NCBI GenBank assembly: GCA_037481815.1
Contig: JBBFKX010000001.1
Location: forward strand, 837,832-855,597
Origin: a candidate division WOR-3 bacterium
Lineage (GTDB): Bacteria; Hydrothermota; 32-111
DNA: 17,766 nt
Direction of reading: 5' to 3'
Made by a program: the position numbers and the translations under genes. Every line of letters starts with the position of its first letter. Position 1 is the stretch's first letter. Of this stretch, positions 1,662 to 4,444 are shown in pieces. Under the pieces are notes generated by a model, which was not told the DNA's origin, made no database searches, and saw nothing but the letters and a program-made list of their open reading frames with translations.

Positions 1662-4328
1662 CACTCTCACTATCTTCTTTGTATATTCTATGCCTCCAAC
1701 ATCTATTACCACAAAATATATCCCTCTCTTTATCTTTACATCCATTCCATATTCACCTCTAACCTGATATCCCATCTCCTTCTTCTCCACCACTCGCCCT
1801 GTTATATCCATAACTCTTATCCTTACATCTCCATCTCCTTTCATCATATATTCTATTCGACCATTACCTTCATTATACCTGATATTGTTTATCATACCTT
1901 CATACTTCTCTTCCACTGTCTCTTTCACTCCTGCCTTTATCCCTCCTTTCACCATCGATATAACTCCACCTTCCTCTTCATATTCATATACCTCTATCTC
2001 TGCTACCCTATTTTTATCCCCCTTCTTCCTATCAATACTGATCTCTATTTTTTTGTCACCTGCATATTTCTCCTTCGGAACAACTATCTCCAATACCTTC
2101 TCTCCAGGTCCACCATAAATTACTCCATACACCTCTCCATCTATCTGAACAACTTCTGGTATATGTGGATTTTTATCTTCTATCTTTACCTTCACCAGAT
2201 AGTTCATCTCTCCATTCATTCCCCCCACTTCATACACCATCCTCTCTATCTTAAAATTACCCTCAACATACTCCCTCAATGGACTTATTATCACTCCATC
2301 TATCGTGTCTGTCGGCTCTCCACTCGAATATGGCAATACATCCTGACTGTAACTCCTCACCTTCGATTTAAATCTGTATTCACCATTACTACCCTCAAAC
2401 CAGCAATAATAAAACTTCGTCTCTATTAACCCTTTCTTATACACAGCATCCATACTATATATCGAATCATCTCCATCATATATAACATAACTCTCCGGTG
2501 TCAATGTGTCTGAATATCCCGCCCTGTATCCTATTATCTTATCATAATCCCTTATATATGATGACTGCACCACATTCCTGCTTATTGGATATCTGTTTAT
2601 CCCTCTTCCAGAACTAACTCTACCATACTCCGAATTCCAGATCTCTGTTGTCCCATCTCCATTATCAACCTCCCAAATAAATATCGTAACCCTGTTATCA
2701 TAATCTCCTGATGGATTCTGTGCCTTCTGATATGCTGGACTGATTAAATCAAAATAACTCCAAGTTGAATTTAACATATCCCATCTACTTCCAACAAGAT
2801 GCCATCCCGTATCTATGCATGCAGCCATATAGGACTCTGATAAAGTAGGAAGTTCATAACAAGGCACCACCACAGGTGAAAACATTGGAACGACTCCATC
2901 TTTTGTGCCTGTATATGTAAACACTGTATCAAATTCAATGTTCCCTATATCCTCATCACTCCATACACCTACTATCAAATCTCCTCTATTTAACCCTTCA
3001 TACCTGTATCCTATATATCCACCTATCTTCCTGTCACTCTCCCAACTACCAAACATTACCGGCTCTGAACTCCACAACACAGGATATTGACTGAATCCAC
3101 CCCACGGTGAACTCTTCACAGCATACTCTATGTTCGTCCCATTATTCCACATCGCTATTAAACCCTCTGTCGTCTTCACAAGGGAAGGATTTATCCCCCT
3201 TCCTATCTTCTCAAGATTCCAGATACCTCCAAAATTATCACTATATCCATATATCACACTGTCTCCATCCGTATACACCATATGCATCCTGTCACTGTTC
3301 AACTCCCTTACAACCTTCCTTTGATTGTTCAACCCCAATCCATATCCACTCTCACTCCATATATAGGGGGTTATCTCTCCTGTATAGGGAACAAAACCTT
3401 CTTTTTCAACTGTTAAACTAAGAGAAGATGTATTTTTCAAATAAATATCATAAAAACTGCTGCCATCTACATCGGTAAAATCTGAATACAATAGTTGATT
3501 TTTTTGGTAAATATTTGTTTTTGCATTTATTACAGGAGATAAATCATAAAAATTTTTTACTTCTATTTTTTCTAAATATGAATTTAAAACTTTTCTTTCA
3601 GGAGTGAAATTGACAAGTAAAAAATTGTTTAGATCGGGGTAAAAATAAATATCATCTATCGAAACACTAAAAGTCAAATTATTACTTGTCGCCTGTGAAG
3701 TACTATACGCTCTTGCATAAAATCTGATTTTCTGGGGTACAGATGTATTTTCTATAGATACCAAGTCATTAATAATATATTTATTCCCATCTTTCACAAT
3801 CTCTATCTGAAATTTAGGGAAATCCACTAAAGGCTCTAAAACATATATTGAAACAGTCGTGTCATAAACTAAAGTTTGATTTTGATATAATTTAAAAATT
3901 AAATTGACAAATAAAAATTTATCTATATTTGTAAATTCTATAGTAAGTGAATCATTATTTTCAAAACATAAAGCAAAATTTAAAGAACTTTTGAAATCAT
4001 CATCATAAACAACACCATAATCATCCTGGATTTCATAACCTAAATAACCGTTTCCCTCTCTTAGATATTCCTTAATATAAGTCGGAATTTCTTTTTCAAG
4101 ACCTATAAAAGAAGTTTCAGGAAATTCTGTTAAACCAACTTTAAAATTTAAAACTGTATCCGTGAAATCAATGTTTCCATATTCATCATTATAAGGTTTT
4201 TTGAATAATTCCCCGTTCCCATTTTGAAATATAATCCAGTAAGGGCTTATTCCAATTTCACCTTGAAAATCATCACTCATGAGATACTTTTCCTGAGCAA
4301 AAATGGAAATAGGAAATGAAGCGATCAT
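1656..4328 (-). CDS. Large secreted protein with T9SS type A-like C-terminal sorting domain; probable true start at 4426, frameshifted by the (AG)16 tract
   Basis: 890-aa ORF. C-terminus VRIRVMDITGRVV...KRGIYFVVIDVGGIEYTKKIVRVR fits the Por CTD pattern. It has an Asp-box-like motif (YSDNFGGIW) and an Ig/carboxypeptidase-regulatory-like segment (FTDVDGSS...LTVEKEGFVPY). Met 4328 has no SD and only the tail of a signal peptide (MIASFPISIFA-QE). Confidence 0.85.
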   Translation of the reverse strand: MIASFPISIFAQEKYLMSDDFQGEIGISPYWIIFQNGNGELFKKPYNDEYGNIDFTDTVLNFKVGLTEFPETSFIGLEKEIPTYIKEYLREGNGYLGYEIQDDYGVVYDDDFKSSLNFALCFENNDSLTIEFTNIDKFLFVNLIFKLYQNQTLVYDTTVSIYVLEPLVDFPKFQIEIVKDGNKYIINDLVSIENTSVPQKIRFYARAYSTSQATSNNLTFSVSIDDIYFYPDLNNFLLVNFTPERKVLNSYLEKIEVKNFYDLSPVINAKTNIYQKNQLLYSDFTDVDGSSFYDIYLKNTSSLSLTVEKEGFVPYTGEITPYIWSESGYGLGLNNQRKVVRELNSDRMHMVYTDGDSVIYGYSDNFGGIWNLEKIGRGINPSLVKTTEGLIAMWNNGTNIEYAVKSSPWGGFSQYPVLWSSEPVMFGSWESDRKIGGYIGYRYEGLNRGDLIVGVWSDEDIGNIEFDTVFTYTGTKDGVVPMFSPVVVPCYELPTLSESYMAACIDTGWHLVGSRWDMLNSTWSYFDLISPAYQKAQNPSGDYDNRVTIFIWEVDNGDGTTEIWNSEYGRVSSGRGINRYPISRNVVQSSYIRDYDKIIGYRAGYSDTLTPESYVIYDGDDSIYSMDAVYKKGLIETKFYYCWFEGSNGEYRFKSKVRSYSQDVLPYSSGEPTDTIDGVIISPLREYVEGNFKIERMVYEVGGMNGEMNYLVKVKIEDKNPHIPEVVQIDGEVYGVIYGGPGEKVLEIVVPKEKYAGDKKIEISIDRKKGDKNRVAEIEVYEYEEEGGVISMVKGGIKAGVKETVEEKYEGMINNIRYNEGNGRIEYMMKGDGDVRIRVMDITGRVVEKKEMGYQVRGEYGMDVKIKRGIYFVVIDVGGIEYTKKIVRVR

Positions 4329-4426
4329 AAATAAAATGGAGAGTAATACGATTGTATTAGAGAGAGAGAGAGAGAGAGAGAGAGAGAGAGAAAAGAAATG
4401 CTTTTAAAGTTTTTAATTTTTCTCAT
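4325..4426 (-). other. Out-of-frame 5' leader of the 890-aa gene; 33-codon product in the current repeat state
   Basis: ATG at 4426 with AAGGAAG at 4431-4437. It reads MRKIKNFKSISFLSLSLSLSLSLIQSYYSPFYL then TGA (4325-4327), which overlaps the ATG at 4328 as ATGA. Confidence 0.75.
4359..4390. repeat. Perfect dinucleotide microsatellite (AG)16, read as (CT)16 on the coding strand
   Basis: Read directly: 32 nt of uninterrupted AG units between the ATG at 4426 and the ATG at 4328. Confidence 0.98.
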
Positions 4427-4444
4427 TTAACTTCCTTTTTTAGA

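Follow-up and report, generated by a model that had tools for sequence, protein, structure and literature searches.

A CT repeat in the signal-peptide coding region of a large T9SS-type protein gene of a candidate division WOR-3 bacterium as a probable phase-variation switch

Results

The tract and the leader

We analysed a stretch of 17,766 nucleotides (the window) from a candidate division WOR-3 bacterium (GenBank assembly GCA_037481815.1, contig JBBFKX010000001.1, forward-strand positions 837,832 to 855,597), and in particular the 5' end of a minus-strand gene, at window positions 4325-4437, coding for a large predicted secreted protein. A tract of 16 CT units lies between the putative start codon and the body of this gene, and an earlier reading of the sequence (the original prediction) had taken it for a phase-variable switch in its OFF state. 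The genome holding the window (G000) amounts to 1.58 Mb in 20 contigs, with 31.4% G+C and 95% completeness. The features of the gene are given below, P0001 being the 900-codon product of the frame entered right after the tract; T9SS stands for type IX secretion system and ORF for open reading frame.

4445..4472, minus strand: promoter-like site, TTGACT (4472-4467), 16 nt, TAATAT (4450-4445), with 9/12 consensus matches
4431..4437, minus strand: Shine-Dalgarno (SD) sequence AAGGAAG, 4 nt before the ATG, the strand reading AAGGAAG-TTAA-ATG
4391..4426, minus strand: start codon (4426-4424) and 12-codon basic n-region MRKIKNFKSISF; the natural in-frame alleles L037 and P0007 start there
4359..4390, minus strand: (CT)16, candidate slippage tract; 16 units leave leader and gene in different frames
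4296..4358, minus strand: remaining signal peptide in the frame of the gene, NTIVLLSILFMIASFPISIFA, with a candidate cleavage site between IFA and QEKY (hydropathy and -3/-1 heuristic)
4325..4328, minus strand: ATGA overlap, the TGA (4327-4325) of the 33-codon leader ORF lying over an internal ATG (4328-4326); stop context tatttaTGAtcg
1656..4295, minus strand: mature protein of about 880 aa, predicted all-beta, and stop; a module common to a paralogous family spans about residues 254-840 of P0001
1668..1841, minus strand: T9SS type A C-terminal sorting domain (CTD; P0001 840-897), TIGR04183 at 25.1 bits for a cut-off of 23

Tandem Repeats Finder returned the tract as 4359-4391, with a period of 2, 16.5 copies and 100% matches; on the minus strand it is directly preceded by TTTT and directly followed by AATACA. 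Translation from the ATG at 4426 gave, with 16 units, MRKIKNFKSISF(LS)5..IQSYYSPFYL and then a stop, that is 33 aa, and the frame entered right after the tract, NTIVLLSILFMIASFPISIFAQEKY..., stayed open for 900 codons without a stop. With a unit of 2 nt, which is no multiple of 3, and a tract that stands between the start codon and the gene body, any change in unit number shifts the frame unless it amounts to three units; 15 units lead to 922 aa (12 + 10 + 900 codons). The original prediction had described the SD-preceded start, the stop after 33 aa, the 922-aa product at 15 units, the return to frame at 18 units and the reading of (CT)n as Leu-Ser whichever frame is entered, and all of these were confirmed. 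The ORF callers used the internal ATG at 4328 and reported an ORF at 1656..4328, of 890 aa.

The SD sequence reads AGGAGG in the relatives G002 and G003 and in the sequencing run X4, with T>C at 4432 in X4. Three promoter-like sites were found in the region against a shuffle mean of 2.1, so the one at 4445..4472 is to be read as a consensus match; TTGACA-type hexamers lie at an equal distance in the paralogous loci.

The tract against the background of the genome

Runs of CT/AG in G000 fall off steeply with length: 1359 have 3 units, 89 have 4 and 6 have 5, none has 6-13, and there is one of 14 and one of 16. A first-order Markov model predicts 1e-10 tracts of at least 14 units and 5e-13 of at least 16, and the (CT)16 tract is no compositional accident. 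Both dinucleotide tracts of at least 7 units in G000, together with 2/3 of its G/C runs of 8, fall in leaders of genes of one paralogous family. The genome scan that the original prediction had suggested thus brought out a second tract, (CT)14, at the same position in a paralogue, and C8 in two more.

Alleles of the same locus in relatives

Two genomes of the same genus, G002 and G003, encode P0001 at 100% identity over 900 residues. Over the 3-kb locus G002 differs from G000 by 1 mismatch and G003 by 3 (3010/3023 and 3009/3022 identical columns, respectively). When metagenome contigs were scanned for the leader sequence, a single further record was recovered, L037, which shows 2 differences to G000 upstream, in the SD sequence, and 0/360 downstream. 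The tracts of these four records are:

G000: TTTT(CT)16, out of frame
G002: TTTTTT(CT)18, out of frame, same state as G000
G003: TTTTCTNNT(CT)11 (11 units plus CTNNT), in frame provided that each N stands for one base
L037: TTTT(CT)12, in frame

L037 reads through from the leader ATG as MRKIKNFKSISF-(LS)4-NTIVLL...IFAQEKY with no stop. The protein cluster of the gene at 90% identity has 5 members:

P0003: 890-aa call from the internal Met
P0006: 874-aa call from a Met later still
P0007: 455-aa fragment starting MRKIKNFKSISFF-(SL)5S-NTIV, back-read as TTTTTT(CT)17, in frame
P0008: 493-aa C-terminal fragment without the 5' end
P0009: 921 aa, with another leader and h-region, MKKSKNVNLT-(LS)5-NTIISLFILIIMVNLFPISIFPQDKY (NTII after the repeat), on the same mature protein

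Judged from these records, a single locus appears with at least five tract lengths (about 11, 12, 16, 17 and 18) and in both frame states, and the repeat is kept even where the leader has been replaced. In-frame alleles of the kind foreseen in the original prediction exist in public protein records, as P0007 and P0009 begin at the leader Met; the MRKIKNFK leader is likewise kept in the orthologues, with differing unit numbers (16, 18, 11, 12). A search of genome contigs with P0001 found no relative, in a set from which close genomes may be left out.

Leader repeats in the paralogous gene family

Four further genes of G000 contain the conserved module of P0001 (residues about 254-900). The 5' end is on the contig for 4 of the 5 family genes, and all 4 carry a leader repeat that is out of frame (contig C1 for the last three loci):

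Locus 1, window 4359-4390: (CT)16, out of frame
Locus 2, C1:746285-746312 (L022, L070): (CT)14, out of frame; 1134-aa LVIVD-repeat protein with a CTD
Poly-C locus, C1:71872-71879: C8, out of frame
Poly-C locus, C1:480417-480424: C8, out of frame

At locus 2 the TGA of the leader ORF overlaps the ATG of a complete downstream signal peptide. Both poly-C loci (L066, L069, L071, L072) show the motif CTATCG-Cn-GATACTTAC. Tract lengths vary at these paralogues as well: at locus 2 G003 has 15 units against 14 in G000, and the poly-C run is 8 in G000 and G004, 10 in G003 and G002, and 9 in G001, the C9 of G001 being the sole poly-C allele that reads through (MKSISKILTIAPPRYLQIVFVFILGFALIFCFGDN..., at least 400 codons).

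The fifth family gene of G000 (window 13650-17765, minus strand) runs off the contig end. It codes for a CTD protein of 1362+ aa, a distant paralogue of P0001 with an open 5' end, and the contigs of G003 and G004 break where its contig ends, which suggests an assembler-impassable repeat at its 5' end.

Across the bacterial family, tracts of (CT) with at least 8 units numbered 16 in 7 of 14 genomes, and 15 of the 16 sit 6-24 codons after an SD and start codon, ahead of a hydrophobic core. By genus they occur in 4/6 genomes of g1 (G000 included) and 3/3 of g5, with 0/5 in g2-g4. Sixteen further putative 5' ends of the gene family were examined; 2 proved to be internal pieces, and among the 14 true 5' ends, 6 have a leader repeat (C7, C9, C11, C13, C14 or G10) and 8 have none. 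A second gene copy in G002 (L074, G002:C1:1228600-1230300; 86% identical in the C-terminal part) carries (AGAAG)5 directly after its SD-ATG, out of frame. The leader-repeat loci, counting CT, poly-C/G and the one AGAAG pentamer, total 29, with 24 out of frame and 5 in frame. The latter are L037 and L068, together with L028, whose sequence has Ns, L025, where the 8 units lie within an ordinary h-region, and L036, a remnant of 116 aa. The shift missing in the OFF loci is mixed, +1 nt at some and +2 nt at others, which fits stochastic slippage; a uniform programmed frameshift was rejected on this ground.

Outside the bacterial family, tracts of at least 8 CT units were found in 17 of the 237 remaining genomes of the phylum sample, mostly in other contexts, so the leader-repeat design is not phylum-wide. 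Five loci in another family of the phylum (L051, L052, L054, L055 and L056, in G085, G172, G128, G168 and G217) carry (AG)8-10 on the other strand, as the spacer between a TTGACA -35 and a TATAAT-like -10; the spacer is about 18 nt long at 8 units and 20-22 nt at 10, which makes these loci candidates for repeat switches that act on the promoter spacer. At L059 (G054:C71:1-1687, another family of the phylum) a lipoprotein signal peptide contains a CT tract; the sequence reads SD-GTG-AGA-AAA-(CT)10 followed by the lipobox-like CVLMLVLSSC.

The protein and its predicted export

On the natural in-frame allele P0002 the heuristic gave a net charge of +4 for residues 1-12, an uncharged core of 20 residues, TIVLLSILFMIASFPISIFA, and cleavage between IFA and QE, in agreement with the signal peptide originally predicted. 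The protein had also been called a T9SS cargo, and this stands in part. In its favour, the CTD is over the NCBIfam cut-off, the NCBI name of P0009 is 'T9SS type A sorting domain-containing protein', and G000 has a SprA homologue (TIGR04189, 350 bits for a cut-off of 200). The CTD fell below the Pfam cut-off (PF18962, 21.4 bits for 27), PorU-like and PorV-like matches stayed under theirs (227 bits for 420 and 131 bits for 250), and the GldL/GldM profiles had no match in G000, in a search whose controls matched nowhere either. The export route is best described as T9SS-type with incompletely recognised machinery, a description which these profile scores partly back.

Pfam and NCBIfam profiles returned the CTD alone on P0001, with no homology to Helicobacter Hop or Neisseria Opa. 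The PDB sequence search gave 0 matches at E<=1, and a protein atlas search for the function of the cargo gave no usable match. An AlphaFold model of the conserved module was poor (pLDDT 60.7, pTM 0.34), and Foldseek returned weak matches to GH43, sialidase and lectin propellers at TM 0.1-0.2; from this the fold can be described no further than as all-beta, possibly a propeller with a sandwich.

Discussion

Proposed slipped-strand phase variation of the gene

We propose that (CT)16 is a hypermutable contingency tract whose slipped-strand mispairing would turn the production of a large secreted surface protein ON and OFF, and we put the probability of this reading at about 0.85. Slippage would alter the number of CT units. 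Translation would start at the SD-preceded ATG at 4426, and the tract would fall at the n/h boundary of a Sec signal peptide, between the basic n-region and the hydrophobic core, where its length would be tolerated because (CT)n reads as (Leu-Ser)n in every frame. Gain or loss of one unit (2 nt) would step the gene through three frames, two thirds of the lengths being truncating: with the TTTT flank, 12, 15 and 18 units would give the full preprotein and other lengths a peptide of 26-47 aa, so that the assembled 16-unit state would be OFF. The phase variation originally predicted is supported by a tract far beyond chance, by its length polymorphism between near-identical copies, by natural ON and OFF alleles and by many paralogues of the same design. 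We infer that length changes are frequent and reversible within one lineage, and ON alleles would be exported and displayed by the CTD/T9SS route. The benefit would presumably lie in population heterogeneity of the cell surface, as an escape from phages or predators or in attachment, since there is no host immune system here.

Several points weigh against this reading or limit it. The two Ns in the G003 tract are probably an ambiguity of the record itself, which leaves the frame of that allele uncertain. The Logan contigs, assembled at k=31, a setting that does not allow tracts of about 31 nt or longer to be spanned, break off at 4350 and 4402 in runs X3, X4 and X6 and further out in X7; none bridges the tract, and they provide no unit counts and speak neither for nor against the switch. 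The signal peptides were judged by hydropathy and the -3/-1 heuristic, not by SignalP. One orthologue pair, G001/G002, has 10 units in both genomes, with no length difference. The 24 of 29 loci out of frame exceed the 2/3 expected (binomial P(>=24) = 0.045, for loci that are kin and not independent), which we read as no more than 'mostly OFF'; this excess could come from mostly silent genes or from a cause not understood. Finally, G000 encodes MutS1 (830.7 bits) and MutL (433 bits), which would be expected to hold down slippage at dinucleotides. With both present, the proposed switching would therefore be localised hypermutation in a repair-proficient genome, as in Neisseria and Haemophilus and unlike Helicobacter, which is said to lack MutS/MutL.

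Among the other explanations, a three-level switch is improbable but deserves more weight than the rest. Here the 16-unit state would re-initiate at the ATGA (4328) and yield a low level of an N-terminally shortened protein, the third frame being fully off. Such an overlap does occur, at locus 1 of both G000 and G002 and at the 14-unit locus 2 of G000, where the re-initiated product MRAILITIVIFYGLLCIASEEG would have a complete signal peptide. At locus 1, however, the product MIASFPISIFA-QEKY has by the heuristic a charge of 0 and an 11-residue core, with no SD before the ATG at 4328, and would probably not be exported. The overlap is also not general, as the leader ORFs of the OFF loci L021, L023, L024, L026, L027, L033, L034 and L035 stop without a start codon, and it can arise by chance in an A-rich genome. 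Decay, in which the tracts would be accidents in accessory genes under loss and the out-of-frame state a pseudogenisation, could account for the 24 of 29 loci out of frame, for the 116-aa remnant at L036 and for the accessory nature of the gene (in G004, G001 and G005 the match to the window starts no earlier than about 4477-4562). It is nevertheless quite unlikely: the OFF alleles retain a 900-codon open frame with 100% protein identity in three genomes and coexist with in-frame alleles, the tracts are perfect, uninterrupted and occupy one and the same place in the leader across two genera for CT and three for poly-C, and three repeat types converge on that place.

An assembly or sequencing artefact, with a real tract of 15 or 18 units and a gene that is simply ON, would be favoured by the error-prone nature of repeats, the Ns of G003 and the failure of the k=31 contigs to cross. 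We hold this for very unlikely, as independent assemblies with identical flanks differ in unit number (11, 12, 16 and 18) and include both frame states, the poly-C locus likewise gave 8/8/9/10/10, and a one-off error would not recur at 29 loci. The least probable of all is a regulator at the RNA level, in which (CU)n would pair with the SD or fold, so that its length would tune translation regardless of frame. The pyrimidine tract does lie 34 nt downstream of a purine-rich SD, but the fold of 4450-4320 had a minimum free energy (MFE) of -8.7 kcal/mol against -8.24 +/- 2.15 for shuffles (z = -0.21), with the tract unpaired in both the MFE and the centroid structures, and the idea was rejected.

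Slipped-strand switching of the single gene could be part of a family-wide 'phasome' in this lineage, an extension that we advance tentatively and consider doubtful. T9SS-type paralogues would have repeatedly gained CT, poly-C/G or AGAAG at the same signal-peptide position, a sister family would carry (AG)n in promoter spacers, and the ATGA overlap may add a third, low state at some loci. If this were true, stochastic surface switching would be an ancient, selected trait, driven by phages or attachment trade-offs and not by host immunity.

Relation to known switches

Phase variation driven by repeats is a textbook device of host-adapted pathogens. The outer membrane protein genes of the Hop family of Helicobacter pylori (sabA, oipA/hopH, hopZ, babA) have CT repeats in the 5' coding region, and the likeness, within what the relevant part of the source describes, extends to the CT unit, the 5'/signal-sequence coding position in a surface-protein gene, frame-shift slippage and paralogues switched independently (PMC3960876). 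The present case differs in having no protein homology, in the presence of MutS/MutL, in a T9SS-type CTD in place of a beta-barrel outer membrane protein and in its bearer, a free-living uncultured anaerobe of the WOR-3/TA06 type and not a host-adapted pathogen. The opa genes of Neisseria have CTCTT repeats in the leader-peptide coding region and, in the portion of the source that treats them, form a multigene family whose copies switch separately with most of them off, as here (PMC3960869). The (AGAAG)5 right after the ATG of the G002 paralogue resembles the opa pentamer; our locus differs in its dinucleotide unit, in the protein family and in the secretion route, and for opa the switching rates have been measured. 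For the C7-C14 leaders of the paralogues the counterpart is the Gardnerella nanH3 sialidase gene, where, by the section of the preprint concerned, the length of an early poly-C tract decides between a full-length exported protein and truncated peptides (bioRxiv 10.1101/2020.09.16.300947). Unlike these paralogues, nanH3 is a single gene for a Gram-positive cell-wall protein in a host-associated organism. The locus would work like the Hop and Opa switches and is not homologous to hop, opa or nanH3.

Literature searches, with subscription journals outside their coverage, found no account of slipped-strand switching of a T9SS cargo and no contingency loci described in WOR-3/TA06 or other uncultured environmental lineages known from metagenome-assembled genomes (MAGs). 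What is notable is the unusually good support from natural alleles, and how widely repeats are spread through a gene family of a free-living candidate phylum. A known device, found many times over in a fermenter of this kind, points to selection by phages, grazers or surface attachment and not by immunity. There is also a consequence for annotation: gene callers begin such genes at internal Mets (the 890-aa and 874-aa calls), and the cargo then seems to be without a signal peptide, while MAG consensus sequences hide the variable state of the tract.

Neighbourhood and organism

The next gene downstream, which may be co-transcribed with the switched gene, is:

3..1628, minus strand: FG-GAP repeat protein with its own signal peptide MKWVIVLVIMLSIVIFVYA, 27 nt past the stop

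G002 has a second copy of this two-gene unit (90% identity over window 1-3379). Synteny with the window extends over 1-17389 in G003 (99%) and over 1-12584 in G002 (97%). Matches in G004 (90%), G001 (87%) and G005 (77%) begin at about 4477-4562, and the switched gene is therefore accessory, at a variable spot. The neighbours include a 2-oxoacid:ferredoxin oxidoreductase, a phosphate butyryl/acetyltransferase, a butyrate/acetate-kinase-like enzyme and a CTD-bearing GH18 chitinase, in agreement with the fermentative organism that had been predicted. The organism had further been placed outside the Bacteroidetes, which is in line with the record titles of its relatives ('candidate division TA06 bacterium', 'candidate division WOR-3 bacterium'). 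A SprA-like protein of 'candidate division TA06 bacterium 32_111' shares 87% identity with that of G000, and the organism is accordingly placed in the Fibrobacteres-Chlorobi-Bacteroidetes (FCB) group, outside Bacteroidota. By their run labels the metagenomes in which it is found come from sludge, oil-field, hot-spring and sediment sources.

The segment at window 12870-13500 is non-coding, with a (TTAACTA)6.3 tandem repeat at 13455-13498, and short fragments of it are also present on several contigs in G003, G004 and G005; it may be a mobile-element remnant, and a tRNA search found no tRNA. An imperfect hexamer (TAAAAA x4 on the plus strand) lies at window 12559-12582, in the signal peptide of the minus-strand GH18 chitinase gene (MLKKIFLFLFLLLNLKLF...), and is no frame switch, because its unit is a multiple of 3.

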